Origin: an uncultured bacterium
Lineage (GTDB): Bacteria; Babelota; Babeliae; Babelales; Babelaceae
DNA length: 64,000 nt
Assembly: GCA_963819815.1 (NCBI GenBank)
Contig: CAWFXL010000001.1
Coordinates: 224,001-288,000, forward strand
Reading direction: 5' to 3'
How positions within the stretch are numbered: position 1 is the stretch's first letter; each line of letters starts with the position of its first letter. This document shows, in pieces, positions 27,351 to 45,325 of this stretch. The notes beneath the pieces were generated by a model. That model searched no databases. It was not told where the DNA came from and saw only the letters and a program-made list of their open reading frames with translations. Made by a program: the position numbers and the translations under genes.

Positions 27351-30300
27351 ATGAAGAAACAGCTTTTATTATCGCTCAGTGCGATATGCTATATGATGAG
27401 TAGTTTTGCGCAGGGTCCCTTGCGTATTTCGCAGATTGATGTGAACCCGGCGATTTGTGCTGCAGGCGGCAGCAGTCCAACGAACACACAGATTCTCGTC
27501 GTTGCCGATGGTGGTGTGCCTTTCGCCGACGGTACGTATCACTATTTTCTGAATGGGTCACCTGTGTTTAATACGAGTGGGGTTTTTAGTGTGCCACTCG
27601 GAACAAGCATTAATATCTCAGTTGCGGACTCATTGACGACCCTATCTGGTATTTCTCTTAATAATCTAGGATCAGATTTTACCTTTTATAGTGTGAGTAT
27701 AGACCCGGTAACTAATTGTCTGGTAAATAATGGGGCCGTTACGGTGGTAACCGAAGGTACATCGAGGCCGGTCTTTACTCTCGCATCTCCTGCCACGGGT
27801 CATGTAAACCAGCCTACTGGCGTGTTTACCGGATTACCTGCAGAAGGCGTCACTATTACCTTTTTTGATGAACTAGGTAAATGTACCAACCCAGCACTTG
27901 GTGGTAACCCAAACTCCGTTACCGTGCCGATTGCTGACTTTCCTGTAGAAATAGTTAACCCATCAGCTACAGGGGCACCTCTAGAAGGCGTAGCACCTGT
28001 ATGCAGTGGCACCAGCGACGGATTCTTAGAATTTACGATCATAGGTGGAAATCCTCCCTATTTAGCATGTCTTACTCCAACTATTGCTGAAGAGACTCAG
28101 CCGAGCGATCCTTCAAGAGTATGCACATTAACTGATTGTGGAACTTGTGGAACAGGTTTTATAGGCGGCCTTTCCAGTGGTACCTACACACTTAGTGTCT
28201 CAGATGCAAATGGGTGTGCAGCTACTAACAACCAATTACCGGTTGTTATTCCATCGGGTAAAATAACTATTGATACTACTACAAGTACTACAACAGTAAC
28301 CCCTTGTTTTAATCAAGCTAACGGTACTTTAGAGGTAAACGTAGATACTATTCAAGCTCCTACAACGGTGACAATCACTGGCCCGGTAACAAGGACTTCA
28401 TCTCCTCAGTCCACAAATCCATTTATATTTGCTAACATTCCGGGCGGCACCTATCAAGTTTCGGCAACAGATGGAACCAATTGTGCGATAGCATCATTAA
28501 CAGTTCCTGTTTCAGGTCCTATCTCATTTACCTATTCTACTATTGATGCTGATAAGGTAGTTATTGCAGCTACGAGAGCTAATGTGGGACAGCCTACATG
28601 TTCAAACAAACAGGGGCTCATAATTATTGATAGCGTATTTCCAAACGACGGTTCTGTGAAGTTTTTTTCATTAGATGGTCATCCATTTGAAGAGTTTCAA
28701 GGTACGTCAACCTTTCAGCCTCCACTTGAAATCTGTGCAGATCCAGGATTTCATACGCTTACGTTAGCATTTGATGATTTGGGAGTATGTACTTCTCAAA
28801 CAGTAACCGTATTTGTCGGCACATCGCAGATTACCTTTACTCCAGTGGTGACAAATGCGCCCTGTTTTAATGGTAGTGCGACGACTGACTCTAATTTTGA
28901 TGGTAATGGAACAATTAAAGTCACAGGTATAAGTGGTGGTACTCCTGATCCTATTACTGACCTTTATTCCTTCTCAATAGGAACAGCAGCCGGATTTATA
29001 ACAACCGATAAGACGTTTACCGTCCCTGCGGGTACCTATGAGGTGACCATAAAAGACCATAACGGGTTTTTCTCAGATCCGCAAATTGTTACGGTTGAGC
29101 CGCAAAGTGAAATTATTCTCTCATTTGATGTATTAACCCCGATTAGCTGTCCAGGCAGTGCTACCGGTGTGATAACCGTGACAGCAACTGGCGGTAGTGG
29201 TTCGTATTTCTTTTCTCTAGATGGGACCCAGGGTACCTTTACTACTACTCCAGGAACCACATTTACTTCTCTACCTACAGCGGCTGGAACTTATTCTCTG
29301 GTTGCAAAGGATGCGGTGAATGGTTGTTTCTCAAGAACCCAACAGCTGGTGTTACAAGATGCGGCTCCAATGCTTATTACATATACGACCTCACAATCTG
29401 CGTGTAATAGTACCACTAGTACAGGAGATATAAGTATATCAAATATTTCGGGCGGCTTACCCCCATATACTGCTATAATTGATGGTCTTAGTTTCACTAC
29501 CAAATTTGGTCCCGGGACCACAAACCCATTTCCGACTGTAATTACTTCAAATCTTGCTCCCGGTTTCCATACGCTTACTATCCAAGATAGTAACAATCCA
29601 GCCTGTTCATCTCCAACGATTGAATTTGAGATACAGCCGGTCGTTATTTCGATAATTAATCCACCTAAGACTACCAACCTGACCTGCTTTAATTCTAATG
29701 ACGGAACTATAACGGTGAATACCGAAGATGTAACTGGTGGTACTTTATTCCCGCCAAATAGTGTTACACCATTTCCGCATTACGAGTATTCTATTGGGCT
29801 TGGAGATTTTATAGATACGGGTAATGCAACAGCGCCGGATTCATTTACAGACCTGCCTGCAGGCATCTATCCTGTTACAGTAATGGATGCTAATGGCTGT
29901 ACTTCAGAGCAAGAATTTGTTGTACTTACTCAACCAGCTCCAGTAACCTTCTCATTTGATGTAACTACCCCAATTCTATGTCCAGGGGGTACCGGTACCG
30001 TAACTATCTTTAACCCTCAGGGTGGTAGTGGAACCGGCTTTCAGTTTTCTATAGATGGTGGTACAGTCTTCGCTTCATTCTCGAACGATCCTGTCACTGG
30101 AAAACCGACAGGAAAGGCGACCCTTGCTGCCGGTACGTACACCCTCGTGGTGACGGACAGTAATGCCTGTCTTTCAACCATCCAAGAGCTTGTATTACAA
30201 GATCCTCAACAAATGGGAGTTGCGTTCACAACAACTCCAGCAACCTGCAAAACTGGTAATGCAGGTACTATAAAAATAACAGGGGTCCTTGATGGAAACG

Positions 30301-31430
30301 TGGGCCTTACTGATAAGACAACACCACCGGCGAACTTTACCTTTACTACGGTTGGGGTAAATCAAACCTTTACCGATAAAGGTATTCCGCCAGTTGTGAT
30401 AAATAGTGCTAACGGCGGTCCGGGGACCGTTCCTCCTGGTACCTATACGATTACCGTAACAGATGCTAATGGTTGCGTATCTCCTTCTGTTACCGCAGAG
30501 GTTGAACAATTTGGGCCACCTATTGTTGATTTTGAAGTAGGTGAAGTGACTGCTAACGCTGGATCTGATGGTTCAATAACGATACATGCGGTGACCAACT
30601 TTGGTCCAGTTGTTGCGCCGGGCAAAATTACATTTAATGTTGGAAACGGGGCGACAACAGATACCGATGTACCTGGTACTGTTTCCATGCTTGATGCTGG
30701 CGTCTATGAAGTGACGGTAACAAACACTACAACAGGATGTCAATCTACCTTTGAAGTGGAAGTAACAGAACCAACACGAACAAGGATTGTCGGAACCATT
30801 TCAGTGGCTGCAACGACGGGCAGTAGCAATGGATGCTTGACGGTTCTTACCGAGTCAACTGCACCACTTCTTTACTCACTTATCTCAATTGAGGGAGAAA
30901 TAGACATAGAGGATCAGATTTCACCGCTCTTCTCAGGCTTGAAAAAAGGCTTCTATACCCTTAAGGTAAAACCAAGGTTTACAGGGACTACTCCTCCGCT
31001 TGGAGACACATTGCGTACTCCGCCTGCCATTGAACCGGATGGACAAGGTAATGAGGCTTTCGGTATTGGGGTTGTCGATGAAGCCTCTGCGATTACGGCA
31101 ACAGCGATAGTAACTCCTATCGATTGCAGTACCGGGCTCGGAGGCTCTATAACGGTAGTTGCCTCTGGTGGAGGTGCACCGTCAACGTGCAATTGTGCAG
31201 TAGGCTTATCGTTCTCGCTCAATGGAGGTGAATTCCAGTCATCTCCCGTGTTTAACAATGTTACTACGACAAATAATATAGTTACGATACAGGATGCTGA
31301 CTGTCATACCACCAGCATAGCTGTTACTGTTCCTATAGTACGGGTACCAAATAACAATCCGATATTTAATTTCTTGGCTAAATATTGCAAAAGTACAGGA
31401 AGTTGTGCTGTTGCTACTACTAAGCCATAA
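27351..31430 (+). CDS. Large exported Thr/Gly/Cys-rich beta-repeat protein (SprB-repeat-like adhesin) with KYC tail
   Basis: Signal peptide after AAGGAG; repeated C..GTITV...GG...Y.FS.DG...L.AGTY.V.V.D.NGC units; ends NNPIFNFLAKYCKSTGSC. Confidence 0.85.
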   Translation: MKKQLLLSLSAICYMMSSFAQGPLRISQIDVNPAICAAGGSSPTNTQILVVADGGVPFADGTYHYFLNGSPVFNTSGVFSVPLGTSINISVADSLTTLSGISLNNLGSDFTFYSVSIDPVTNCLVNNGAVTVVTEGTSRPVFTLASPATGHVNQPTGVFTGLPAEGVTITFFDELGKCTNPALGGNPNSVTVPIADFPVEIVNPSATGAPLEGVAPVCSGTSDGFLEFTIIGGNPPYLACLTPTIAEETQPSDPSRVCTLTDCGTCGTGFIGGLSSGTYTLSVSDANGCAATNNQLPVVIPSGKITIDTTTSTTTVTPCFNQANGTLEVNVDTIQAPTTVTITGPVTRTSSPQSTNPFIFANIPGGTYQVSATDGTNCAIASLTVPVSGPISFTYSTIDADKVVIAATRANVGQPTCSNKQGLIIIDSVFPNDGSVKFFSLDGHPFEEFQGTSTFQPPLEICADPGFHTLTLAFDDLGVCTSQTVTVFVGTSQITFTPVVTNAPCFNGSATTDSNFDGNGTIKVTGISGGTPDPITDLYSFSIGTAAGFITTDKTFTVPAGTYEVTIKDHNGFFSDPQIVTVEPQSEIILSFDVLTPISCPGSATGVITVTATGGSGSYFFSLDGTQGTFTTTPGTTFTSLPTAAGTYSLVAKDAVNGCFSRTQQLVLQDAAPMLITYTTSQSACNSTTSTGDISISNISGGLPPYTAIIDGLSFTTKFGPGTTNPFPTVITSNLAPGFHTLTIQDSNNPACSSPTIEFEIQPVVISIINPPKTTNLTCFNSNDGTITVNTEDVTGGTLFPPNSVTPFPHYEYSIGLGDFIDTGNATAPDSFTDLPAGIYPVTVMDANGCTSEQEFVVLTQPAPVTFSFDVTTPILCPGGTGTVTIFNPQGGSGTGFQFSIDGGTVFASFSNDPVTGKPTGKATLAAGTYTLVVTDSNACLSTIQELVLQDPQQMGVAFTTTPATCKTGNAGTIKITGVLDGNVGLTDKTTPPANFTFTTVGVNQTFTDKGIPPVVINSANGGPGTVPPGTYTITVTDANGCVSPSVTAEVEQFGPPIVDFEVGEVTANAGSDGSITIHAVTNFGPVVAPGKITFNVGNGATTDTDVPGTVSMLDAGVYEVTVTNTTTGCQSTFEVEVTEPTRTRIVGTISVAATTGSSNGCLTVLTESTAPLLYSLISIEGEIDIEDQISPLFSGLKKGFYTLKVKPRFTGTTPPLGDTLRTPPAIEPDGQGNEAFGIGVVDEASAITATAIVTPIDCSTGLGGSITVVASGGGAPSTCNCAVGLSFSLNGGEFQSSPVFNNVTTTNNIVTIQDADCHTTSIAVTVPIVRVPNNNPIFNFLAKYCKSTGSCAVATTKP

Positions 31431-31453
31431 TAGAATAAGAATATCATGAGAGC

Positions 31454-31486
31454 TGAGGGTCCGCATAGTCGGGCCCTCAACCTTTT
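31454..31486 (+). terminator. Rho-independent terminator
   Basis: TGAGGGTCCG-catagt-CGGGCCCTCA then short T run. Confidence 0.6.
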
Positions 31487-31544
31487 CTTGATTAGAATAT
31501 ACTAATGGCATATGCTTAGGGCTACGAATAGTGAGGATACCTCT

Positions 31545-32450
31545 ATGGATCTAACATTTAGTAGTAGTCAACATTTGAAGAACTTTCTTGCATCGCTTGA
31601 TATACGGCAGTCTTCTAAGCTTACGTATCAACGCCAATTAAAGGAGTTCTTTGGCTGGTGTAAGAGGAATACTATTCTTGCTTATGACCGTGAAGCACTG
31701 CTTGCCTATAAGCTTCATCTTTCTAAAGATCGCTCATTAGCAGCCTTTACGATATCGGGATACCTAACTGCTGTACGAAGATATTTTGAATGGCTTGAGG
31801 TCTACCACCAGCAACCTAATGTAGCGCGAGGTATAAAAGGTCCCAGTCGAAAAAGGGGCTTTAAAAAAGATTGCCTTACTATTGATCAAGTTAAAAAGAT
31901 GCTTACCTCTATCGATAGATCTTCATTGACTGGTAAACGTGACTTTGCGATGGTGAATCTGATGGTACGAACTGGATTGCGGACTATTGAGATTGCTCGT
32001 GCTCAGAGGGAAGATATTGCTCAGCAGGGTGGCGAGATTGTTCTCTTTATTCATGGAAAAGGTCGTGATTCAAAAGATGAGCTTGTTTTACTCACCCCTT
32101 TTACCTATGAACCGATTATGGAATATCTTACCGAGCGTGGCAGTATAAAACAGGAAGATCCTCTCTTTGCATCTCATAGCACCAAGAACTTTGGAAAAGC
32201 GCTGACCACACGTTCTGTATCACGAATCTGTAAGCATCATTTAAAGTGTAATAACCTCGATGATGCTCGTCTCACCGCTCATAGCTTGCGCCATACTGCA
32301 GTTACGTTGAGTCTCTTAGCAGGAGCAACACCCCAGGAAGCAAAGCTTATGGCGCGCCATGCTGATATAAACACGACACTTATTTATGCGCATAATATTA
32401 ACCGGATTAAGCAAGCACCAGAAAAGAAGATCGACGAAATTCTTGAGTGA
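31545..32450 (+). CDS. Tyrosine recombinase/integrase (Xer-like)
   Basis: RD.AM..LM.RTGLR..E, GKG..K, HSLRHT, ARHADINTT.IY catalytic set R-K-H-R-H-Y. Confidence 0.93.
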   Translation: MDLTFSSSQHLKNFLASLDIRQSSKLTYQRQLKEFFGWCKRNTILAYDREALLAYKLHLSKDRSLAAFTISGYLTAVRRYFEWLEVYHQQPNVARGIKGPSRKRGFKKDCLTIDQVKKMLTSIDRSSLTGKRDFAMVNLMVRTGLRTIEIARAQREDIAQQGGEIVLFIHGKGRDSKDELVLLTPFTYEPIMEYLTERGSIKQEDPLFASHSTKNFGKALTTRSVSRICKHHLKCNNLDDARLTAHSLRHTAVTLSLLAGATPQEAKLMARHADINTTLIYAHNINRIKQAPEKKIDEILE

Positions 32451-32457
32451 TCTTATG

Positions 32458-32479
32458 ATGTGTGAGCATGCTCACACAT
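32458..32479. repeat. Perfect 22-bp palindrome just after the integrase stop
   Basis: ATGTGTGAGCA TGCTCACACAT. Confidence 0.8.
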
Positions 32480-32641
32480 GACTCAGTTTTCCCAATGTTA
32501 GAGAGATGATTAATAGGGTCGATATCGATCTAGACGATGAACGAGGGACTCACTGGTAAAAGTTTGGCAGTATGATAATTTCTGTCAGTTTGGTACTCAC
32601 GATGTCTCGTATGTACTCTTCTTCGGAGTGTCTAGATAGGG

Positions 32642-33454
32642 TCACCAATTTAAATCTTTCTCGTAGCCAAGCTTAATTAATAGTTGTCCCGCAGCTTTCT
32701 TAAATACTTCTTTATCTTGTTTAGTAAAATAGTCTCTCCAAGATCCTATCTTGCCACTTCTAAAAGTGTTTGCATATGCACCTTTCTTGCCAAAAAGATT
32801 CTGTGCAATCTTCTGAGCTCTGTCTAATGAAATTGGATGATCTAGATGGTGAGCAATATTCATAATTTCTTGAATTTGTGCCTCTTTACTACCTCCGCCA
32901 TCAGGTCCAACCAACTTTTCAAATGTTGTGGTATAAAATAGGGGGTGATCAATCCAGCCCAGATATCTATCATAAAAATCAACGACCCCCATGAAAGGCT
33001 TTACTTTCTTGTCGAGCCACTTCATAGGAACTGAAGCGATTGAGGAAGTATCTAAAACCCAGGATTGAATAGCTTGACTAAACTCCATATGAGCTAGTTT
33101 GGGCCATTCGTGTGGATAGCGTCTTGCGTAATGTATCATTGAAATACATTGATCGCGAGGGTCTCTCAAAATAAAGACTCCTTTAAAGCCATTTTTTTCG
33201 ATGAGTCTTATGTTTGCTTCTGTACATACTGCATGCCCAACGAGAGATTCCGCCTGTACATCCTGATCACAGAGAATCGTATACGTCTTATGATGACCGA
33301 TCATTCCGATACCGGTAATTTCATAAATGCATTTCATAAGAAGGTGGGTTCCACATTTTGGTATGGAAGTTACAATGATCTTTGGAGAAGCAGTAGATGT
33401 CGAAAAAAGAACTATACCGAGCAAAAACACTCGTATTTGATTTTTAATGCCCAT
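32642..33454 (-). CDS. PAPS-dependent sulfotransferase-domain protein, exported
   Basis: SIPKCGTH (5'-PSB), LRDPRD..IS (3'-PB), FRSGKIGSWR..F; signal peptide. Confidence 0.88.
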   Translation of the reverse strand: MGIKNQIRVFLLGIVLFSTSTASPKIIVTSIPKCGTHLLMKCIYEITGIGMIGHHKTYTILCDQDVQAESLVGHAVCTEANIRLIEKNGFKGVFILRDPRDQCISMIHYARRYPHEWPKLAHMEFSQAIQSWVLDTSSIASVPMKWLDKKVKPFMGVVDFYDRYLGWIDHPLFYTTTFEKLVGPDGGGSKEAQIQEIMNIAHHLDHPISLDRAQKIAQNLFGKKGAYANTFRSGKIGSWRDYFTKQDKEVFKKAAGQLLIKLGYEKDLNW

Positions 33455-33623
33455 AAAAACCCTCTCTGTATTGATAATTTCTTCTGCATAGGTTAGCAAA
33501 ACAAAAAGATTACAGCGAACAAAATTGCCTGCAAATTAAAGTTGATCCGACGGTTAAAAACAAGCACCAATTAAGTTAGTGAAAGTCTTGGGAAAGGATA
33601 TCTTGAATGTCCTTCTTCCAGCC

Positions 33624-34823
33624 CTAGAGCTGTCTAAAGAGGGCATTATTTCCACGGGCAAGAATCTGCATCGGATTTTGGGTTGCTAAGAGTAGTGGTA
33701 GTTCTTTCAAAGCATCAGCAAAAGAGAGCGTGGTATGAGTGCCCGTAGTTTCACGTTGTTTACCTGCGTAAAGTAGATAGGTATGAGCTTCGGGGTAATC
33801 TTTAGAAAAAGCACGTAAGGGCTTAGTCAGCTTTGTTGTTTCTATAGGTGATGTCGTGAGAGAAAATGCATGGATACCTCGTGGTCCATGCAGAATAAAA
33901 GGTACTTCAGTACCGGCAAACGTTTGCCAGAAATGGAAGGTATAGCCAAGTGAATAATAGTCATTTATGGCACGCGCGGACTGCAAAAACAAAGTCTGCA
34001 ATGCCGCGCCTGCCATCTCTCCCTCACGATTATCAGATCCCATATAACGCAGGGCGTTATAGACACCTGTATCAAAAAAATAGAACTTATTGTGCGCTAT
34101 GATTTTCCTTTTTACGTTATGCGTAAAGGGGGTAATGCGGACTGCTAACAGGAGATCTTCAAGAAGATCAAAGTACCGTGATACCATAAGTCTATTTAAC
34201 GAAAGCTCTCGTGCTAACTCAGAAACGTTTAATACTGATCCTTGTGAAAAGCTTGCTCTCTCAAGAAAGCGGGTAAAGCCGCTTATATTTCTGGTAAGTC
34301 CTTGCTGAAGAACTTCTTCATAACTTCCTTGTTGTAGATAACTTGCCAAGTATGACGCAGCGTCAGGGTTGCCTATCGCTTCAGGGAGCAGCCCAGACTT
34401 TAGGAGCTGCGGTATTGCAATGGAGGTAGTAATTTCTTGGATAGTTAAGGGGTGCATTTGATAGGTAAGCACTTTTGCAAGAAGAGTATTTATTCCTTGC
34501 TTGCGAAGGCTTTGTGCACTAGATGCAGTAAGCAAAAAACGAATTTGCCGTTCTTTAATTAGACGCTCCACTTCATCAAGAAGTTGCGGAACCCGCTGTA
34601 CTTCATCTATGACAACCCAACCTTTAAAGTCTGGAGGGATGAGCGTCTCAAGGCGACTTGGTTGCGCCAAAAGAGGTCCATAAATACCAAACCCTTCAAG
34701 ATCAATATATAAACAATCGGGGAGCTTCTCTTTTACCCAGGTTGTTTTTCCTGTTCCACGAGGACCAAGTAAGAAGATACTATGGGGTCCTGCGAGGGGC
34801 AACGATAGAATTCTGTTGTACAT
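33624..34823 (-). CDS. AAA_14 + DUF4143 type ATPase (degenerate C-terminus)
   Basis: GPRGTGKT, VIDEVQRVP, KFYFFDTG. Confidence 0.87.
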   Translation of the reverse strand: MYNRILSLPLAGPHSIFLLGPRGTGKTTWVKEKLPDCLYIDLEGFGIYGPLLAQPSRLETLIPPDFKGWVVIDEVQRVPQLLDEVERLIKERQIRFLLTASSAQSLRKQGINTLLAKVLTYQMHPLTIQEITTSIAIPQLLKSGLLPEAIGNPDAASYLASYLQQGSYEEVLQQGLTRNISGFTRFLERASFSQGSVLNVSELARELSLNRLMVSRYFDLLEDLLLAVRITPFTHNVKRKIIAHNKFYFFDTGVYNALRYMGSDNREGEMAGAALQTLFLQSARAINDYYSLGYTFHFWQTFAGTEVPFILHGPRGIHAFSLTTSPIETTKLTKPLRAFSKDYPEAHTYLLYAGKQRETTGTHTTLSFADALKELPLLLATQNPMQILARGNNALFRQL

Positions 34824-35215
34824 ATAATCGTTTTTCCATAAAATTTGATCATCTTATGATCATAATTACATATTTTTAACAAGATGGCAAATTATAGCGT
34901 AGAGAGGGAAGTTTTGTACGTTACCTTTGAGTGAAGATCGAAATGCTTCGATTGTCTATACGAAGAAAGGGTAGTGAAATGAAAAGGAGCCGGGTGTGTT
35001 TGAGACAAATATGTGGCCAAAAAAATAAGGCTTACGCTACGTCAGGGTTCTCTTTGAGTGACATAAAAAAGTTTGTCTACAGTGAGGTGAGGGTGATGCT
35101 CGAAGGTACATGGTCAAGGAGCCTATAGATGATCTGTAGCGAAGGTGATACATGACAAAGAGACCGAGATCTGGCACGCTCATAAATGGCAGTATTTATG
35201 TTGTTGAGGTAAAAT

Positions 35216-36280: not shown

Positions 36281-36400
36281 ACCACTTCCTAGATCTCTTG
36301 CAAGAATTCAATTAGAAAAACTATTGAAAATAGTATTGCTTTTTTATTACAATGAAGGAGATAGAACTATAATATTCCTCTAAACTAAAAGGAGATTTCT

Positions 36401-36799
36401 ATGAACATCAAAAACACCCTAGTGGGTATGTTAATGATTATGTTGAGTACTGCAGCTGTTACACAATGCAGTGAAGGGAAAAAACAAGAGCAACGTGCTG
36501 AAGAAGCTAAAGCCCTGAAGCCAGGTAGAGGCTTAGGTATGGGACCTCTAGGTTTGAGAGCTCGAGCAATGGCTGCTGAAGCTGCCGCCAAAGGTAAAGA
36601 AGTAGAAGAAGAAGCAGTTGAAAAAGGAAAAGTAGCACTGTCAAAAGTAAAACAAGCTCCACCTCTTCCTCCAAAACGTGCAAAAAGAACAGCTGAAGCT
36701 CAAGCAGCTGCTGCAGCAGAAGAACCTGAACATGAAGAATCATGGGGCGAAATGTTAGCTCGTCATGGTGCAAGCGTTAATGAGCCATTTAGGTGCTGA
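36401..36799 (+). CDS. Array gene A1: small exported Ala/Glu/Lys-rich protein with PPLPPKR
   Basis: AAGGAG RBS; MNIKNTL leader; APPLPPKRAKR; ESWGEMLARH. Confidence 0.85.
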   Translation: MNIKNTLVGMLMIMLSTAAVTQCSEGKKQEQRAEEAKALKPGRGLGMGPLGLRARAMAAEAAAKGKEVEEEAVEKGKVALSKVKQAPPLPPKRAKRTAEAQAAAAAEEPEHEESWGEMLARHGASVNEPFRC

Positions 36800-36905
36800 T
36801 TAATCTGACTAACTGGATAGCTAAGTGAAAGTAAAGACTCAATAAGAAGGTCTAGGAATGCTAAAAAATATCCCTATCTTATTGATAACATTAAAGGAGA
36901 ATTCT

Positions 36906-37307
36906 ATGAACATCAAAAATACCCTCGTTGGTATGTTACTCATTATGTTAAGTACTGCAGTTGTTACGCAATGCAGTGAAGGAAAAATGCAAGAGAAAAA
37001 AGCTGAAGAAGCTAAAGCTCTCAAGCCAGGTAGAGGTTTAGGTATGGGACCTCTAGGCTTAAAAGCTAGAGCAATGGCAGCTGAAGCTGCTGCGAAAGAG
37101 GAAGAAGAAGCAGCACCTGAAAAAGGAAAAGTAGCTCCTTCAAAAGTAAAACAAGCTCCACCTCTTCCACCTAAACGTGCAAAAAGAACGGCTGAAGCTC
37201 AAGCGGCTCCTACAGCAGAAGAAGCTGAAGCTGAAGAATCATGGGGCGAAATGATGTCGCGTCATGCTGCAACGTTAGCGAGCCAATTTGGTCATTGGGT
37301 AGATTAA
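36906..37307 (+). CDS. Array gene A2: near-duplicate of A1
   Basis: Same leader, GRGLGMGPLGL, APPLPPKRAKR, ESWGEMMSRH. Confidence 0.85.
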   Translation: MNIKNTLVGMLLIMLSTAVVTQCSEGKMQEKKAEEAKALKPGRGLGMGPLGLKARAMAAEAAAKEEEEAAPEKGKVAPSKVKQAPPLPPKRAKRTAEAQAAPTAEEAEAEESWGEMMSRHAATLASQFGHWVD

Positions 37308-37407
37308 TCTGACCAACTGGACAGATACGTCAAAGTAAAGACTCAATAAGAAGGTCTACGAATGCTAAAAAATATCCCTATCTTATTGATTAATTAAAGG
37401 AGAATGT

Positions 37408-37971
37408 ATGAATATCAAAAATACCCTCATGGGTATGTTACTGATTATGTTGAGCACTGTAGCTCTTACCGAGTGTGGTAAAGGCGGGTGCAAAGGTGGT
37501 GTTTGTGCTCTAAAGCCTAACAAGCAGAAACAAGCCCAAATGATGCAGCGTGAACAAGCAGCAAAAGCCCAAGCACAAGCTCAAGCGCTACAAATGCAGG
37601 CAGCGCGTGCCAAGCAAGCTCAAATAAGGCAGGCAGCGCAAGCTCGTGGTGCTGAAGTTCGCGCAGGTATAAGGGCTAAAGCATTGGCTGCCAAAGAAGC
37701 GATGAAAGGTGCCGCTAAACCTACAGTAATGACTGCTACGCCCAAAGCGTCTGAATTAGCAAAAGCCAAAGGTATGATGGAAGCAAAAGCGGTGACTACC
37801 GAAGAGGCGAAAGCTGCGCTCGCTAGTGAAACTCCACCTCCACTTCCTCCAAAACGTGCAAGAAGAATAGCTGAAGCACCAGCAGCGCAAGAACAACCAG
37901 CTCCGCGTGGAGAAACGTGGGGAGAAATGTTTGCTCGTCATGGTGAAACGTTAATGGGTCATTCTGGGTAA
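37408..37971 (+). CDS. Array gene A3
   Basis: Same leader; CGKGGCKGGVC; Gln/Ala-rich; PPPLPPKRARR; ETWGEMFARH. Confidence 0.85.
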   Translation: MNIKNTLMGMLLIMLSTVALTECGKGGCKGGVCALKPNKQKQAQMMQREQAAKAQAQAQALQMQAARAKQAQIRQAAQARGAEVRAGIRAKALAAKEAMKGAAKPTVMTATPKASELAKAKGMMEAKAVTTEEAKAALASETPPPLPPKRARRIAEAPAAQEQPAPRGETWGEMFARHGETLMGHSG

Positions 37972-38073
37972 GAGTAATCTGACCAAACTGACAATTAAGT
38001 GAAATTAAAGACTCGAGGGTATATGAACTCAAAATACCCTCGTATCTTATTGATCCAGTAAAAGGAGAATGTT

Positions 38074-38574
38074 ATGAACATCAAAAATACCCTCATGGGC
38101 ATGTTGCTGATTATGCTGAGCAGTGCAGCTCTTACCGAATCTAGTCAAGGCAATGCCAGAGGTGCAAGCGCAGCTAGAATCACAGCCACTGCTTTGAGAG
38201 GCGCAACAATACGTGCTCGTACTGGGCAAGTTGCTGCTCCGCAAGAAGCCCAATCAGGGAGTGCCCAAGGTATGAAGGCTACAGCAGTCCCTGCTCAAGC
38301 AAGTGCTTCATCAACCATGGGATCTGAAAAGGCAGCATTAGGCAAGGCCGGAGAACCTATGATGCAAGCAAAAGTAGTAGTGCCAGAAGCTCAACAAGAA
38401 GCGATACCGGTGGCAAAAGAAAAACAGGCTCCACCTCTTCCTCCAAAACGTGCGAGAATGGTACCTGTAGCCCCTGCACCTGTGGTTGAACCACAAGCGG
38501 AACAACCAGCCCCGCGTGAAGACACCTCGGGAAGCTTGTTTGCGCGTCATATGAGTTATTTTTTTGGAGAATAA
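38074..38574 (+). CDS. Array gene A4
   Basis: Same leader; APPLPPKRARM; DTSGSLFARH. Confidence 0.85.
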   Translation: MNIKNTLMGMLLIMLSSAALTESSQGNARGASAARITATALRGATIRARTGQVAAPQEAQSGSAQGMKATAVPAQASASSTMGSEKAALGKAGEPMMQAKVVVPEAQQEAIPVAKEKQAPPLPPKRARMVPVAPAPVVEPQAEQPAPREDTSGSLFARHMSYFFGE

Positions 38575-38627
38575 TCTGAGCAAGCTGACAAATCAGTGAA
38601 AGTAAAACCTCAATAAAGGAGAAAATT

Positions 38628-39119
38628 ATGAACATTAAAAATACCCTAGGTATGTTATTAATTATGTTAAGTACTGTTGCTAGTACCCAGTGTGGTAAAG
38701 GCGGCTGTAAAGGCGGAAGTTGTCCGGCAAAGTCTGGTAAAAGCCAACATGCTCTCATGATGCAGCGTGTACAAGCGGCCAGAGCAATACAAGCTCAAGC
38801 GCAAGCTCGACAAATGCAAGTGGGTGGTAGTACCCAAGCTCAAACAAGGCAAGCAGAACCAACACGTGTAGGGGTACGTGCAGGTATGGGTGGTCGTGTA
38901 ATGCAAGTTCAAGCAAGGCCAGCATCAGCATCGACTTCAAGTTCTCGTTCAACCTATGGATCATTGCAATTAAGACCTGCAGGAACGGCGTCTGAACTAG
39001 GCAGAAGTACAAGTTCTAGTGCTACAACAGGAAGTACTCGAGGATCGTTAACTCAATCGAGAGAATCAACGGCATCTGAAGAGTCTGAATCAAGTGGTGC
39101 AGCTGAAAGCAAGGACTAA
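38628..39119 (+). CDS. Array gene A5
   Basis: Same leader; CGKGGCKGGSC as in A3; Ser-rich tail ending ESKD. Confidence 0.85.
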   Translation: MNIKNTLGMLLIMLSTVASTQCGKGGCKGGSCPAKSGKSQHALMMQRVQAARAIQAQAQARQMQVGGSTQAQTRQAEPTRVGVRAGMGGRVMQVQARPASASTSSSRSTYGSLQLRPAGTASELGRSTSSSATTGSTRGSLTQSRESTASEESESSGAAESKD

Positions 39120-39133
39120 GTTAGGAGTTTTTT

Positions 39134-39487
39134 ATGAATGTAAAACATATCTTAGTAGGTTTGTTACTGATCTTGATGAGCACGGAAGCTATTACGGAAT
39201 GTAATGGTGGTCGTTCAAGAAAAGCTCAACAACAGCAACAATGTACCGGAGAAAGCTGCTCATTAAAAGGTGGCAAGAAAGGGAAAGGTTATCGTGGCCG
39301 TCATATGAGACGCCATGGTAAGCGCCATGGAGGCTGGGGTATGAGAGGTCGTGGTACGCAAGGTCAAGGCATGAAAGTCCAAGCCGTGAAAGCCCAAGGC
39401 ACGAAAGCCAAAGCTACTGAGTCTACTGAGTCAGAAGAAGAAGAGTCTTCTACCGGCAACGAAGAAGCAGTTGAAAGTAAAGATTAA
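39134..39487 (+). CDS. Array gene A6
   Basis: Related leader ending ITEC; basic Arg/His/Gly middle; acidic tail ending ESKD. Confidence 0.8.
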   Translation: MNVKHILVGLLLILMSTEAITECNGGRSRKAQQQQQCTGESCSLKGGKKGKGYRGRHMRRHGKRHGGWGMRGRGTQGQGMKVQAVKAQGTKAKATESTESEEEESSTGNEEAVESKD

Positions 39488-39510
39488 TCATAATACTTAG
39501 GAGAATAACT

Positions 39511-40005
39511 ATGAATTCAAAATTAGCATTCGTAGGCCTCTTAGCACTTATGCTAGGGGCCACGGAACTTATCGATGCACGTGGTGGCGGTGGTGGACGT
39601 GGCGGTGGTGGACGTGGCGGTGGTGGCGGCGGCCGAGGCGGCGGCGGTATGCATGGTGGTGGAATGCGTGGCCATGGTGGTGTTAGCCATATGGGCGGAC
39701 GTCATGTAGGCGGAGGTCGCCATGTTAGCGGCGGACGTCATGTAGGTGGCGGTCGACATGTTGGCGGCGGACGTCATGTAGATGGTGGTCGTCATGTTGG
39801 CGGAGGTCGCCGTGATGGTGGACGTCACTTAGGCGGTCGTGGTATTCGCAGTGGCTCATACTGGGGCCCGTATCTGTTGGGTGGTCTTCTTGTAGGCATA
39901 CCCCTCCTAAACTATGAGCTAGGATCACCTTATGATGGTTGCTACTATGACTTCGATGGAGACTTAATCTGCCAAATGGGCGATGAATGGTACTATGCGT
40001 CATAG
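39511..40005 (+). CDS. Array gene A7: exported Gly/Arg/His-rich repeat protein
   Basis: Leader; RGGGG repeats; GGRHV(G/S/D) repeats; aromatic/acidic Cys-containing tail. Confidence 0.8.
   Translation: MNSKLAFVGLLALMLGATELIDARGGGGGRGGGGRGGGGGGRGGGGMHGGGMRGHGGVSHMGGRHVGGGRHVSGGRHVGGGRHVGGGRHVDGGRHVGGGRRDGGRHLGGRGIRSGSYWGPYLLGGLLVGIPLLNYELGSPYDGCYYDFDGDLICQMGDEWYYAS
39694..39831 (+). repeat. 18-nt coding tandem repeat (GGRHVG x ~7-8)
   Basis: Units such as ggcggacgtcatgta / ggtcgacatgtt with synonymous variation. Confidence 0.85.
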
Positions 40006-40020
40006 AAATGAATGAGACTT

Positions 40021-40051
40021 AAAGATGGAGGCTTCGGTCTCCATCTTTTTT
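40021..40051 (+). terminator. Rho-independent terminator closing A1-A7
   Basis: AAAGATGGAGGC-TTCG-GTCTCCATCTTT followed by T run. Confidence 0.85.
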
Positions 40052-40200
40052 GATGTAGAGCATTTATTTCTTCGTCCTTTTCTACCCATCTTGACCAAAC
40101 AAAAAAAATCTTATTCTATAAAATACTTGATTAATCATATTTGTACTTAATAAACTAAGAGAGATAGAGTATAATTACCAAATAAGTAAGGAGCATTAAT

Positions 40201-40512
40201 ATGAATGCAAAGTATTTACGAGCAGCTCTTTTGCTTGTTGTTTTAGGGATGGCAAGCATTACTGAATGCGGCCGTAGTTGCAGTCGGAGTTCAAGCCGTG
40301 GACATAGACATTCAAGTCATAGCCATGGGCGTAGGTGTTGCCGAGGTGGCGGCTATGGCTGGGGTCCAAGAGTTTATGGAGGCTTTGGGTACTATGATCC
40401 TTATTTTAACGGATACGGCTATGGATACGCCCCTTGGGGATATGGTTATGGGTATGGTCCTTATGCCTATGAGCCCGTTGGCTGCTCATTTGGGTTGAAT
40501 GTCTGTATTTGA
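40201..40512 (+). CDS. Array gene A8: exported Tyr/Gly-rich small protein
   Basis: AAGGAG RBS; leader ending ITEC; GYGYG repeats. Confidence 0.78.
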   Translation: MNAKYLRAALLLVVLGMASITECGRSCSRSSSRGHRHSSHSHGRRCCRGGGYGWGPRVYGGFGYYDPYFNGYGYGYAPWGYGYGYGPYAYEPVGCSFGLNVCI

Positions 40513-41868
40513 TGACAGCTCTTTTACGAGCTTTTTGAAGTGTCTTCCACGTTCTTGATAATCTTTATAAAGGTCATAGCTCGCACCTGAGGGTGAAAGG
40601 AGAATGACCTCATCCTTTTTGGCTTGCTGTAGGCAGGCTTTGACTGCCTCATGAAGAGTCTCATGAGCCGATGTGGGGATGCCGTATTTTTTGCAGCCAG
40701 CCTCGAGCTCTTTGGCCTCTTTTCCAAAACATACTGTTGCTGCAATATAGGGCTTAAGTAAACCGATGAGCGCTGCTCTATCAACCCCTTTACTGATACC
40801 ACCAAGGATAAGATGGATGGGGCGAGGTGCTAATGTTGCTACAGCAGCTCTTGTCGCTTCAACAATAGTGGACTTTGAATCATTATAAAAGAGTTTACCC
40901 TCATGAGATCCCACAAATTCAATGCGGTGTTCAAGTGGTGAAAACTCTGGTACTGCAAAAGCATGAGAGGACAGTATACCTAGCATATCTGATACCGTAA
41001 GAAGTATGAGCCAGGTTTCATGGAGCAGCGATTCTCCACGTTGGGCGAGGCTAGAACGAATGGGTAAGGTTGTTGTAGCAAGCTGACCATTCTTTAGACG
41101 TCTACGTGTGAGCGTGGTTCCTTCTAAGGTATACAAGTCATCACCTTCCTGCAGCAATTGAAGCGTCTCAGGTGATGGCTCATCTTGAGTAAAGTAGGTA
41201 CAAGGACGGTTAGTCAGAGCACGTACTTGTGGAGCAAGGTTAAGTGGTAGGAGCATCTTCTGTTCAGGGCGTTGATGCCTAAAGATGTGTGCTTTCGCTT
41301 CAAAATAAGCTTCCAGAGTACCATGCCGATCAAGATGATTGGCATAGAGATTCGTCATAATGGCAAGATCGGGCGCAAAGGTATGCGCAAACTCAAGTTG
41401 GAAGCTTGAGAGCTCCAAAAGGCCATAGTCAACGGTATCTTGGCTAGGAAGAAGATCAAGCATAGCGGTACCTATATTACCGCCTGTGGCGACCGAGAGA
41501 TCGTTTGCTTGAAGAAGTGAAGTAAGCAGGGTAACTAAGGTTGTTTTTCCTAAGGAGCCGGTAACGGCAATGAGCGGCTTGTGCCATCGTGGACCAAAGA
41601 GGGTAAGCTCGTGGACCATCTTGTGCTGGTACTCCTGTGCTTGGGTAAGAGCTATCCCAGGACTCGGGACAAGGAAGTCATTGTCTTTGAAGAATGCTTC
41701 TTGTTCATGAGGCGCATAAGAGCGGACCTGGTAGGTAGTAAGAAATGATTCTTCTTCAGCAGTTAAAGGACGCGCATCGTATACGGAAAGTGAATGCCCT
41801 TGCGCTTGCAGAAAGCGTATTGCCGATCTGCCAACAACTCCAAGACCCCAAATGCCATATCTTTTCAT
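40486..41868 (-). CDS. murD: UDP-MurNAc-L-Ala-D-Glu ligase
   Basis: GLGVVG, SPGI, AVTGSLGKTT, GGNIG, ELSSFQLE, NHLDRH, HRIE, YNDSKST, LLSPSGASYD.Y..Y.ERG. Confidence 0.95.
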   Translation of the reverse strand: MKRYGIWGLGVVGRSAIRFLQAQGHSLSVYDARPLTAEEESFLTTYQVRSYAPHEQEAFFKDNDFLVPSPGIALTQAQEYQHKMVHELTLFGPRWHKPLIAVTGSLGKTTLVTLLTSLLQANDLSVATGGNIGTAMLDLLPSQDTVDYGLLELSSFQLEFAHTFAPDLAIMTNLYANHLDRHGTLEAYFEAKAHIFRHQRPEQKMLLPLNLAPQVRALTNRPCTYFTQDEPSPETLQLLQEGDDLYTLEGTTLTRRRLKNGQLATTTLPIRSSLAQRGESLLHETWLILLTVSDMLGILSSHAFAVPEFSPLEHRIEFVGSHEGKLFYNDSKSTIVEATRAAVATLAPRPIHLILGGISKGVDRAALIGLLKPYIAATVCFGKEAKELEAGCKKYGIPTSAHETLHEAVKACLQQAKKDEVILLSPSGASYDLYKDYQERGRHFKKLVKELSSNTDIQPK

Positions 41869-42212
41869 AGAAGTACCTTTTTGTGGAGGAATGCTTTTCT
41901 TAAGTATACTAGCCTGCACAGAAAAGTGAATCGATAGATCCATTCATACGGGTATTCTTACATGGGCGAACCCATAGAGGAGTTTATAGGGTATACCATT
42001 AATGGCAGTATTTATGCAAACTGGTGAAATATATATTTTTCAGTAGAGTCTTCAAGTTGTATACAATAATGAGGAAAGGGGAGTATTTCAAAAAACTCTG
42101 ATTGCAAGATCGAGTTCTTTGGAGCTATGGTGGCTTGATGAGTTGTTTGGAAGCACAATAATTCAATGATTAAAAATATGCAGGATGAGATATCCCACCC
42201 TGCATCAGATTC

Positions 42213-42628
42213 TTAGCGACGAAAGCGTATCAAAGCGAGATACCCTGGACCAGCAAGGATAATGGAGAAAAGAATAACAAGTAGGCAGAGCACATATTCA
42301 AAGCCATTGTTTTGAATAAAGAATCCTTGTGATTTGTGAATAAGGATAAGTGCGCCAGCCATTACCGGTATGACCATAAGAGCACCAAGTTCTGCATAAA
42401 TCCCAAGAAGGAGCAGTACTCCGCCAATAAGCTCAGCAAAAGCCGCGAGATAGGCAAGATAGAAGGGGATACCATAGCCTGCCCAATCCATGTTACAAAT
42501 CCGCTTAGTCCTGGACCTCCAAAAAGACCTAGAACTTTTTGGCTTCCATGAGCAATAAAAACAACACCCATCGTTATCCGTAAGAGTGTTAAAGCCCATT
42601 GGGTGCGAGTGGCAGTATTCATCATCAT
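42213..42628 (-). pseudogene. DoxX-family membrane protein, frameshifted near 42485 (probably an indel error)
   Basis: N-half LLRITMGVVFIAHGSQKVLGLFGGPG in one frame; C-half AELIGG.LLLLG...H..GFF..NNGFEY...GPG in another; AGGAG RBS. Confidence 0.85.
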
Positions 42629-42915
42629 CGAAAGTCTCCTTAACGTAAATAGGGTGTATAACGTAGGGATACTACTTCGTTTAGAGAATTTTTTCAAATT
42701 GTGTTCATGTTTTTGGCATGGATTATTTCAGTCGAACGGTTGAAGATATATGGTGCTTTCATCGAGCTATTAGATGGGAAGTATTTTGCAAGGAGGGGAC
42801 TTTGCTGTAAAATGCGTGAAACTATTGTGTCCATAAAGAGAATTTTGATACTCTTCCGATGGATGCGAAAATGGCGTATCAGCTTATACATTTTATACAT
42901 TTAAAAGGAAGACGA

Positions 42916-43623
42916 ATGAAGAAACACTTCGTAATATTACTTATCATCTGGTCGGCTTCTATTATTGCACAGGTTGGTCCTCAACCATTGTATATCTCAA
43001 ATATTACGCTTATCCCTTCATGTGGGAATACTGCAACGATATCGGTGACTGCTGCTGGTGGTCAACCAACGCTGGATGGTTTCTATACTTACCAGATAGG
43101 TTCTCCGATAAATGAAATTCGGGTTGCAAAAACGGTCACCTTTACTGCTACCAGTGGCTCAATACCCATTTTGCTTATAAGCGATTCTTCATCGAACGCT
43201 CTTAATATAGATCAAGTAGCTTCTTTTACGCCATCTCAAACCACCTCAGTAAGCATGGATGTCAGTACATTACCGCTTGGTAATGGAAAAGGATGTATCC
43301 TTTTAAGTGTTACTAATCCTGGAGGATTAGCAACCAATCTGGTTACTTTTGGTTTGCGGGCTTTTACTCCTACTGATTTGGAGACTCCTTCCGATATCAA
43401 GCAGGTGAAAGAAGCCCCTTTCACGGCTACATTTCTTTCTTTGCCAAGCGCTTTACTTAATGCTTCTGTTGTTAATATCGATGATGGTTGTGCTGAAGGC
43501 TCCACTTTCAATTTCATATTTCCCTTTCCTCAGGGATTGGGAAATGCTCTGAAAGCGTATATATTTAACAAATATTGTAGCTGCCCTCTCAGTAGTTCTG
43601 CGATATCTGTTCCTATACCTTAG
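42916..43623 (+). CDS. Exported beta-rich protein with KYC tail (short paralog of the 27351 protein)
   Basis: AQVGPQPLYISNI...ISVTAAGGQP..DG.Y.Y; ends GNALKAYIFNKYCSCP. Confidence 0.85.
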   Translation: MKKHFVILLIIWSASIIAQVGPQPLYISNITLIPSCGNTATISVTAAGGQPTLDGFYTYQIGSPINEIRVAKTVTFTATSGSIPILLISDSSSNALNIDQVASFTPSQTTSVSMDVSTLPLGNGKGCILLSVTNPGGLATNLVTFGLRAFTPTDLETPSDIKQVKEAPFTATFLSLPSALLNASVVNIDDGCAEGSTFNFIFPFPQGLGNALKAYIFNKYCSCPLSSSAISVPIP

Positions 43624-43680
43624 CCTTAAGAATAATAAGCTTCTTGTCATAGGGAATACTGAAGTATCCTTGTAGATTAG

Positions 43681-44043
43681 TATCTCAATAAAACAGGTGC
43701 CTGTTTTATTGAGATATTCTATGTGTTTTGCAGGCTCAGGGAAAAACGTTATTGTCGAGATCATCAAATCCATAGCTTAATTTCGGCAGCATTCTTGCAA
43801 ATTTGACGTCTTAATCAGGATAATAAAAACATTTCCCACAATCACTATTAAATGGACTGATTAGAGCTGTCATTTCCTGGATATGTCACGCAAGATTATT
43901 TAATAGTAAAATGCTATGCTCAATTGTTTCATCAATTAATTACAATGGTAACAATCATTGCAAGAACTATAACTCAAACATCTCAATAAAACAGGTACCT
44001 GTTTTTATAGACAGATCATGAAAACAGGTACCTGTTTTATTGA
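43681..44043. repeat. Cluster of three AAAACAGGT(A/G)CCTGTTTT palindromes (REP-like)
   Basis: 36-bp inverted repeat 43681-43716; cores at 43988-44005 and 44021-44038. Confidence 0.85.
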
Positions 44044-44130
44044 CTTTATCCAAAGTCGTGAAATGTTTCTAGCATCAACCTTACCCCAGGAGTGATCTAT
44101 GGAACATACCAGCAAGGCTTTTCTTATTTT

Positions 44131-44184
44131 ATAGCCAGAAACCCCCATGGCCTGTTAAGCCTGGGGATGAATGGCAATCCTTAC
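44131..44184 (+). repeat. 54-bp dispersed hairpin repeat, copy 2
   Basis: 51/54 identical to 2897-2950. Confidence 0.75.
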
Positions 44185-44584
44185 CATTTTACCTTATGAG
44201 TGAGCTACATCGATTATGCGATTAGATTAAGAAATATGAAGACAGATACCTGTTCTCAACCCAAAGGGGACGATAGTATACTAATAGCTTGAGGTTCATC
44301 AGATATCCCCAAAAAAATTCATCAATGCCAAAAAAATCGCTAAGGCATGCGCGCTTCCTGGCCTCCAATAGAACCCCTACATGGCTCTTCACATTAGATC
44401 CATTTTCGGGAATCAAACGATAGATAAAAGCTCTAAAGTAGCTAATTGGATGCAAGGAATGAAAAGGTATAAAAAAGTTAAAGAAACCATTGCATGTATG
44501 CAAACAACTTTGGTATCTTTTCATGGATGCGAAAAATGATCCATCAAGGAAATGTAAATCTTAACTTTACTCAAAGGAAGACGA

Positions 44585-45325
44585 ATGAAGAAGCTTATCA
44601 TACTACTCGCGATTTATTCAGCATCGATGATTGCTCAGGTTGGTCCTCAGCCATTATATTTCTCAAATATTACCATTACTCCTACACCAGGATCATGCGA
44701 TGTAGCTGTAGGTAAAGCAACTGCAACTATATCGGTGACTGCCGCGGGTGGGCAGCCAGCAGCAGATGGTTCATATATCTATATAGTGAATGGTAATACC
44801 AATCAGGCCATAGTTGCAAAGACTGCTACATTCACCGCTCTTGAAAACGAAGCTGTTAGCGTGATAGTAGTCGATGCAGGGCAGAATACTTTATTCGTAT
44901 TTGGAGGCACACCAGTAGTTATGTTTAAACGAAGTGCGACAACATCGGTGAGCATGGATGTGGTTTCGTTACCTCTTGGTAATAATCCTGGTTGTTTCAG
45001 GTTAACCGTTATTAATCCTGCTGGTAAGGCAACCGGTACGGTAAACTTTACAGCCCAATCCGTAACTCAGAATGAATCATTAACTGAAACTATCCTTGAG
45101 CAAACACTCCAGGCACCGCCCTTTACTGTCACATTTCCTTCTTTGCCGGCTGCATTTATTATTGCCGAGGTTGCGGTTGCAGATGATTGCGGATCGGGCG
45201 GTTCATCCACCTTCAGCTTTAACTTTCCTTTTCCACAAGGATTTGGAAATGCTTTGAATGCATATATATTTAACAAATATTGTAGCTGCCCTCTGAGCAG
45301 TACAGCAATAGTGATACACCCATAA
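44585..45325 (+). CDS. Exported beta-rich protein with KYC tail, paralog of 42916..43623
   Basis: Same N-terminus and upstream AAAGGAAGACGA-ATG; ends GNALNAYIFNKYCSCP. Confidence 0.85.
   Translation: MKKLIILLAIYSASMIAQVGPQPLYFSNITITPTPGSCDVAVGKATATISVTAAGGQPAADGSYIYIVNGNTNQAIVAKTATFTALENEAVSVIVVDAGQNTLFVFGGTPVVMFKRSATTSVSMDVVSLPLGNNPGCFRLTVINPAGKATGTVNFTAQSVTQNESLTETILEQTLQAPPFTVTFPSLPAAFIIAEVAVADDCGSGGSSTFSFNFPFPQGFGNALNAYIFNKYCSCPLSSTAIVIHP

Follow-up and report, generated by a model that had tools for sequence, protein, structure and literature searches.

Three genes of an uncultured bacterium of the family Babelaceae encode proteins of 1359, 235 and 246 residues with a similar short motif ending in Lys-Tyr-Cys near the C-terminus. 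Is this motif a portable address on exported proteins and, if so, what reads it? The genes lie in a stretch of 64,000 nucleotides, here called the window; coordinates are those of this stretch.

27351..31430, + strand: SprB-repeat protein of 1359 aa, tagged cargo (ORF reading, Pfam scan)
27351..27410, + strand: Sec-type signal peptide of the 1359-aa protein (by eye; the mature chain would begin with Gln)
31356..31388, + strand: tag NPIFNFLAKYC of the 1359-aa protein, one residue shorter than the consensus, 13 residues before the C-terminus
42916..43623, + strand: member of a small beta-sandwich family, 235 aa, tagged cargo (ORF reading, genome profile)
43543..43578, + strand: tag NALKAYIFNKYC of the 235-aa protein, 14 residues before the C-terminus
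44585..45325, + strand: 246-aa protein of the same small beta-sandwich family, tagged cargo
45248..45283, + strand: tag NALNAYIFNKYC of the 246-aa protein, 13 residues before the C-terminus

Each of the three ORFs has a signal-peptide-like start, as judged by eye, and the motif, as reported in an earlier note on this DNA. The C-terminal ends quoted there were wrong, since 13-14 residues follow KYC and the proteins finish in ...KYCKSTGSCAVATTKP, ...KYCSCPLSSSAISVPIP and ...KYCSCPLSSTAIVIHP. The N-terminal unit said to be common to them is present and weak (BLASTP E 3e-6 and 5e-4 over about 70 aa); Pfam SprB matches it at E 3e-11 in the 1359-aa protein, at 0.003 in the 235-aa protein and not in the 246-aa protein. 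Taken alone, the three window proteins could therefore be paralogs. A single-sequence fold of the 246-aa protein was uninformative (pLDDT 44).

The surroundings of these genes include a tyrosine recombinase gene (31512-32450, + strand; Phage_integrase, E 1.5e-20), which begins 82 bases past the stop codon of the 1359-aa gene. At 36401-38574 (+ strand), four tandem genes encode signal-peptide proteins with a PPLPPKRA motif and, downstream of it, a [ET]WGEM-x-x-RH-like motif that is degenerate in the fourth. No other ORF of the genome contains PPLPPK, and the four genes form part of a run of small signal-peptide genes reaching 40512. The proline motif resembles an SH3 ligand, so these four proteins may be host-directed. 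The first 600 bases of the contig (G000:C1:1-600) have, by eye, a G+C content much above that of the window, and are possibly foreign DNA or an assembly artefact.

The 12-residue consensus of the tag is [NS]-x-[IL]-x-x-[AYF]-I-x-x-K-Y-C. Among the 1007 ORFs of at least 200 aa in this genome, KYC occurs within the last 23 residues of 20, against 0.48 expected from the nine KYC occurrences elsewhere in the same ORFs; two of these 20 lack the helix and are unrelated proteins. A profile search found 23 tag copies in the genome (G000). The small beta-sandwich family accounts for 14 of them, two of which are broken. Other tagged cargo comprises the SprB giant of 1359 aa and four SBP_bac_3 proteins with one remnant. 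In a beta-helix protein the tag is inside a loop, 156 residues from the protein end. A 67-aa protein has the motif behind its signal peptide and ends in KYG, and a 41-aa protein is signal peptide plus tag and nothing else; both of these small ORFs are also kept in a close relative (G165). Frameshifted copies of the small family and a remnant SBP-type tail ending in KYR are found at G000:C1:211431-212155, C1:702771-703216 and C1:427356-427577, the last of these, the remnant tail, being present in G165 too.

The search through genome and phylum that the earlier note had advised was carried out in four profile rounds, the last three on all 261 genomes of Dependentiae (Babelota), the phylum of this bacterium, plus one family-level round, with each match judged individually. 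Matches in G005, G010, G015, G069, G195 and G221, which were off-frame or antisense to other genes, were dropped before counting, as were a 17-aa frame in G194 and an internal match in a protein without a clear signal peptide in G170. True tag copies occur in 22 of the 261 genomes, in three families. The cargo includes SprB/Ig repeats, SBP_bac_3, right-handed beta-helix, lactonase and DUF5122 propellers, DUF11, GMC oxidoreductase and FAD_binding_4/BBE proteins; it is Cys-rich and reaches frames of 2238 aa. At least eight unrelated cargo classes bear the tag, in addition to tag-only proteins, of which there is a further one in G141 and one of 88 aa in G135. The signal-peptide filter was passed by 73 of 78 tagged frames, which is weak evidence, because the filter is loose (600 of 1007 background frames pass).

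The proposal of a portable tag on exported proteins is thus borne out by many unrelated cargo classes and by tags standing alone behind a signal peptide, and the unrelated classes exclude the simple paralogy that had been left open. A strictly C-terminal tail, on the other hand, is contradicted by internal copies, named beforehand as a refuting observation, and by N-terminal ones in a GMC enzyme (G163), a beta-helix protein (G137) and a low-complexity protein (G141). One beta-helix family has the tag in a loop in four genomes (G000, G165, G141, G166) and at the N-terminus in another (G137). The motif as first written needs revision accordingly: the giant's copy is one residue short of the consensus, the tag may lie away from the terminus, and other residues can stand in place of the Cys. 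Cys is found in 55 of 69 distinct tag cores; its absence from the other 14 weakens lipidation or disulfide anchoring as the core mechanism. The Lys-Tyr and Ile positions are conserved as strongly as Cys, and many tagged frames stop 0-4 residues past it. Hydrophobic residues at -9, -6, -5 and -1 relative to Cys in the 69 cores have helical spacing, and an amphipathic helix is predicted for the tag on that ground. The motif is genuine and portable, and neither strictly terminal nor Cys-dependent.

Could the copies nevertheless lack any common function, as remnants of paralogy, as a mobile coding DNA repeat, or as the last helix of a folded domain? The SprB-like N-terminal unit of all three window proteins would fit such an origin. 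The cargo classes and tag-only proteins do not, nor does the beta-helix family with its tag in two places; synonymous positions differ freely in the eight copies inspected, and the tag is therefore conserved at the protein level. An absence of common function is largely refuted and scarcely credible. The mobile DNA repeat was rejected as a source of the tag from the same eight copies. A mitochondrial Mia40-type import signal was rejected by inspection: the hydrophobic positions do not match the spacing of such signals.

Within a cargo family the tag is optional, since 11 of the best 120 propeller homologs are tagged, five of these ending exactly in KYC. Four untagged propeller homologs (P0045, P0074, P0106, P0005) have a different motif at the C-terminus, [DE]-[RS]-[MT]-W-L, in most cases with a Cys after it, and many other untagged ones have a Cys within the last few residues. 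An exact DNA pattern of the tag, searched in 185,579 genomes, gave 65 loci, of which seven are tagged exported proteins (five titled Dependentiae, two overlapping in one uncultured bacterium). None of the 65 loci is a tagged exported protein titled as another phylum, the pattern being narrow enough for variants to escape. Among the remaining 58, 15 have a stop inside the motif and the others are short frames or internal matches, three of which look like valyl-tRNA synthetase. Short-motif searches of large protein libraries, which are blind to such motifs, returned the query itself and one unrelated repeat protein.

A search for a partner, also suggested in the earlier note, points to a clade of outer-membrane barrels as the candidate. 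When neighbouring genes were clustered, one barrel family was present in a tagged locus in 15 of the 22 genomes and directly adjacent to the tagged gene in 13, beside unrelated cargo. Its commonest direct neighbours are SBP_bac_3 proteins and GMC and BBE oxidases, and barrel and cargo genes alternate in arrays in G121 and G162. By a count from the match table, 60 of the 261 genomes have the barrel at E<=1e-100, including 22/22 of the tag-positive ones; all 10 tag-positive genomes outside the profile training alignment are among them. The p-value of this co-occurrence, 3e-8, overstates the case, because related genomes are not independent. Tag-adjacent barrels form one clade in the tree (21 of 31 rows, support 96/89). 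In the genome studied here the wider family is matched about ten times, and two clade genes are located outside the window.

G000:C1:153113-154594, - strand: clade barrel gene, outside the window, 1.45 kb from a tagged gene
G000:C1:1603552-1604637, + strand: clade barrel gene cut by the contig end, outside the window

The reverse end of contig C2 reads like a barrel C-terminus and is followed by two tagged SBP genes; together with the barrel at the end of C1 these probably represent the same operon across a gap.

The linkage was examined further in held-out genomes, namely 18 of the 38 barrel-positive genomes without an earlier tag, within a set of 40 regions around high-scoring barrels. The scoring matrix was fixed before the regions were examined, and the cut-off was the 99th percentile of the C-terminal scores of 989 untagged ORFs. 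Each barrel contributed about two scored neighbours; a single neighbour counts for two barrels in G162. An adjacent ORF scored above the cut-off for 14 of 22 clade barrels, in 12 of the 18 genomes, against 1 of 11 more distant paralogs, where the one scoring neighbour is shared with a clade barrel. The held-out matches add three families to the range of the tag, often as variants without Cys (...IATYGS, ...AEKYSL, ...IRNKYL, ...IAKYAS). A tagged neighbour is missing beside eight of the 22 clade barrels in held-out genomes and 13 of another 18 in known-positive genomes; of the five cases among those 18 that do have one, one is doubtful (G163 L314). Neither of two intermediate barrels in known-positive genomes has such a neighbour. 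In the genome studied here most tagged genes are far from any barrel gene, and the window genes are 97-114 kb from the nearest. Linkage of the tag to the barrel clade is well supported.

Two other observations concern genes beside the tagged ones. A 533-aa signal-peptide protein without a Pfam match (L002:3657-5255, G000:C1:200656-202257, and homologs) adjoins a tagged gene in six genomes, a beta-helix gene in five and a BBE oxidase gene in one. At L318:3208-6196 (G166) a clade barrel is followed by ORFs that look, by eye, like transposases, in the place taken by a tagged SBP gene in relatives.

The tag could also act without the barrel, by binding the membrane as a helix with an acylated Cys or with one cross-linked into a disulfide-bonded envelope; the barrel genes would then be no more than co-regulated envelope genes. 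Such a role would account for the Cys in 55 of 69 cores, for the higher Cys content of tagged proteins (2.1% vs 1.4%) and for the many tagged genes here that are unlinked to a barrel. It agrees poorly with Gly, Ser, Leu or Ala in place of Cys in barrel-adjacent variants, with linkage to a single barrel clade as opposed to its paralogs, and with Lys-Tyr and Ile positions as conserved as Cys, and is distinctly improbable.

Tags on unrelated cargo resemble each other more within a genome (likeness 36.8) than between genomes (28.2; permutation p 0.0002), and the effect holds in one genus alone (p 0.004). They are at least as alike as tags on same-class cargo in different genomes (33.4). The set comprised 26 tags, one per genome and cargo class, from 10 genomes, with G165 and the window giant left out. 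Such a pattern would be expected if tags co-evolve with a receptor specific to each genome, or if tag-coding segments were copied recently.

The barrel proteins are Cys-rich, about 500 aa long and mostly end in an aromatic residue; they are named only 'hypothetical'. The five barrels scanned gave no meaningful Pfam match and no DUF560 at E<=1, and a PDB sequence search with the barrel profile gave no match. An AlphaFold2 model from 12 sequences (pLDDT 74.5) has 12 long strands and N-terminal helices. Among solved structures it is nearest to the COG4313 channel (Z 22.0), FapF (Z 21.3) and autotransporter barrels (Z 17-18), with porins also matching; the rmsd to the COG4313 channel and FapF is 2.6-2.8 over about 257 residues at 11-13% identity. 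FapF, a polypeptide transporter, is the top Foldseek match (E 3.8e-9), and FhaC reaches only Z 9.9. The N-terminal helices sit where FapF has its plug. The model thus predicts 12-stranded outer-membrane barrels of the FapF/COG4313 fold with an N-terminal plug. The 31 invariant columns divide between the long loops L3-L5 (17) and the strands (14), with none in short turns or the N-terminal part. With sidedness taken from usual barrel topology, this distribution suggests a binding crown that faces outward. Neither a POTRA nor a coiled-coil-like conserved periplasmic part was seen in the barrel. The genome's two Omp85 matches are other genes than the barrels, and type II secretins are present.

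Related barrels may have signals of their own. Sister-clade barrels in L323:2040-6371 (G141) and L322:1448-5043 (G164) are followed by large repeat proteins ending in P-x-IALYD-x-x-I, which suggests a second barrel-tag pair; each sister clade might recognise a different tag of its own. In the tree, tight groups unite barrels of different families (L287 of G258 with L222 of G215 and L188 of G153; L290 of G191 with L223 of G156 and L219 of G244), and one such group has the same BBE-oxidase cargo. These tree groups suggest that barrel-cargo cassettes move between lineages.

The fold invites the view that the barrel is an export channel like FapF, with the tag as a recognition signal that opens the helical plug in a two-partner system with a portable signal. 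The Foldseek match, the position of the N-terminal helices and the tandem arrays with one barrel per cargo gene, which resemble two-partner and type XI loci, speak for it, and all evidence of tag-barrel linkage applies equally, so that linkage does not separate a channel from a dock. The tag, however, is found at either end or in a loop, tag-only proteins bring no cargo, and the barrel has its conservation on long loops rather than in a conserved periplasmic part. The cargo includes Cys-rich frames of up to 2238 aa, whereas FapF, as described in the available part of PMC5557850, passes unfolded chains. An export channel is on balance unlikely. An uptake channel of the COG4313 kind for small hydrophobic molecules, with the tag tethering binding proteins and oxidases to its periplasmic face, is improbable to a greater degree. 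It would explain why the COG4313 channel is the best VIA match (Z 22.0) and why SBP_bac_3 proteins and GMC and BBE oxidases are the commonest neighbours. A precomputed PF13557 match exists in 2 of 72 barrel homologs, and the nearest named Atlas cluster (score 0.92) has PF13557 in 21% of members; the profile itself matched neither this genome nor the five barrels scanned. Against it, much of the cargo is adhesin-like (SprB, Ig, DUF11, propellers, beta-helix), and the short turns and N-terminal region contain no invariant residue.

The reading preferred here is that the helical tag docks exported cargo on its cognate outer-membrane barrel at the cell surface, a mechanism whose chances fall only slightly short of even. 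Cargo carries a signal peptide, as read from the sequence, and a modular tag whose occurrences show it in use at the C-terminal end, just after the signal peptide or within a loop. Its partner would be the one clade of about 500-aa barrels of predicted 12-stranded fold, to which adjacency and co-occurrence point. The helix would bind the conserved outer loops, and the tag Cys, where present, might optionally secure the complex through a disulfide bond with the Cys-rich barrel. A type II system, the secretins of which are encoded in the genome, could bring folded cargo to the surface. Tag-only micro-proteins might cap or compete for empty docks, and the three window proteins would use a distant barrel in trans. 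Docking is favoured by the outward-facing conserved crown together with a position-independent tag without a transmembrane segment. A tag that works at either end or in a loop cannot be a sortase-type cleave-and-attach signal; its freedom of position and the existence of tag-only proteins would be easier to reconcile with docking than with cleavage or directional threading. Several points count against surface docking: the usual periplasmic location of solute-binding proteins and oxidases, the distance of most tagged genes here from a barrel, the many clade barrels without a tagged neighbour and the optional presence of the tag within the propeller family.

What is new is that tagged genes adjoin one clade of unannotated, predicted 12-stranded barrels; tag and barrel together likely form an undescribed surface-display system. 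A broader proposal, somewhat more tentative than docking itself, is a system of the Dependentiae's own in which a FapF-fold barrel reads a 12-residue helix anywhere in a protein and exports or anchors adhesins, enzymes and binding proteins, with tag-only micro-proteins as gates and cassettes moving between families. No description of the tag or the tag-barrel system was found in the main texts of the freely available papers searched, and the available parts of PMC6561590, PMC4776705 and PMC12172432 mention neither. As far as the accessible portions of PMC6561590, PMC4378268 and PMC4776705 go, the secretion routes reported for Dependentiae are type II (and Sec) only, and about 44% of the proteins of one isolate have signal peptides. 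Pagnier et al. listed seven secreted Cys-rich beta-barrel proteins in Babela with no function assigned (PMC4378268, in the part available). By architecture these probably belong to the wider barrel family. For a phylum of protist parasites, a tag with a named candidate partner would be a first handle on how surface proteins are placed. It would let surface proteomes be predicted from sequence and would give a widespread family of unannotated barrels a role. Among bacterial sorting signals, an address of 12 residues that is independent of position would be unusual.

Among known systems, autotransporters (type Va) fuse passenger and barrel, and two-partner systems (type Vb, TpsA/TpsB) have a 16-stranded, Omp85-family TpsB with POTRA domains. 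The present system resembles type Vb in its separate barrel and cargo genes lying side by side, but the barrel is 12-stranded in the model and not of the Omp85/TpsB kind, and the cargo has no N-terminal TPS domain. Type IX secretion serves the same kinds of cargo domain (SprB, Ig, PKD, DUF11, DUF5122) with a portable export or anchoring module. That module is a folded C-terminal domain of about 80 residues, whereas the tag has about 12. As the earlier note had observed, no such domain is seen in the three window proteins (Pfam and NCBIfam scans); a SprA search gave no match in this genome (88% complete), with control genomes equally blank. Type Va is similar in having a 12-stranded barrel with an associated helix (Z 17-18; for Va, PMC5557850 in its available part), and different in that cargo and barrel are fused there and are separate ORFs here.

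The MYXO-, JDVT-, Synerg- and CGP-CTERM signals are Cys-containing C-terminal sorting signals, according to the accessible part of 10.1101/2023.06.07.544157. Like them, the tag is short, has a conserved Cys and is portable between unrelated exported proteins. As far as that part describes them, the tag differs in having no transmembrane segment (a hydrophobic segment near the tag in 3 of 84 tagged frames, by a crude hydrophobicity window) and no Arg-rich end, in keeping its Cys in 55 of 69 cores only, in its N-terminal and internal copies, and in a barrel as partner instead of an intramembrane protease.

Type XI/Slam, in the portion of PMC8406197 available, likewise links one outer-membrane protein to diverse surface or secreted cargo; here, in contrast, DUF560 is absent from the five barrels scanned and the cargo signal is a position-independent 12-residue motif. 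FapF is the functional amyloid transporter of Pseudomonas (PMC5557850, available part), and the COG4313 channel is Pput2725 (PMC4493636, available part). With both the barrels have in common the plugged 12-stranded outer-membrane fold and Sec-exported partner genes nearby. They differ from them in their length of about 500 aa, very long conserved loops and Cys-rich N-terminus, and the cargo differs from that of Fap in consisting of folded-domain proteins with a common short tag instead of amyloid repeats. No FapD-like protease recurs among the neighbours of tagged genes in the short flanks covered. Although it fails their defining tests wherever those could be run, the tag-barrel system works like Fap, type XI and type Vb.
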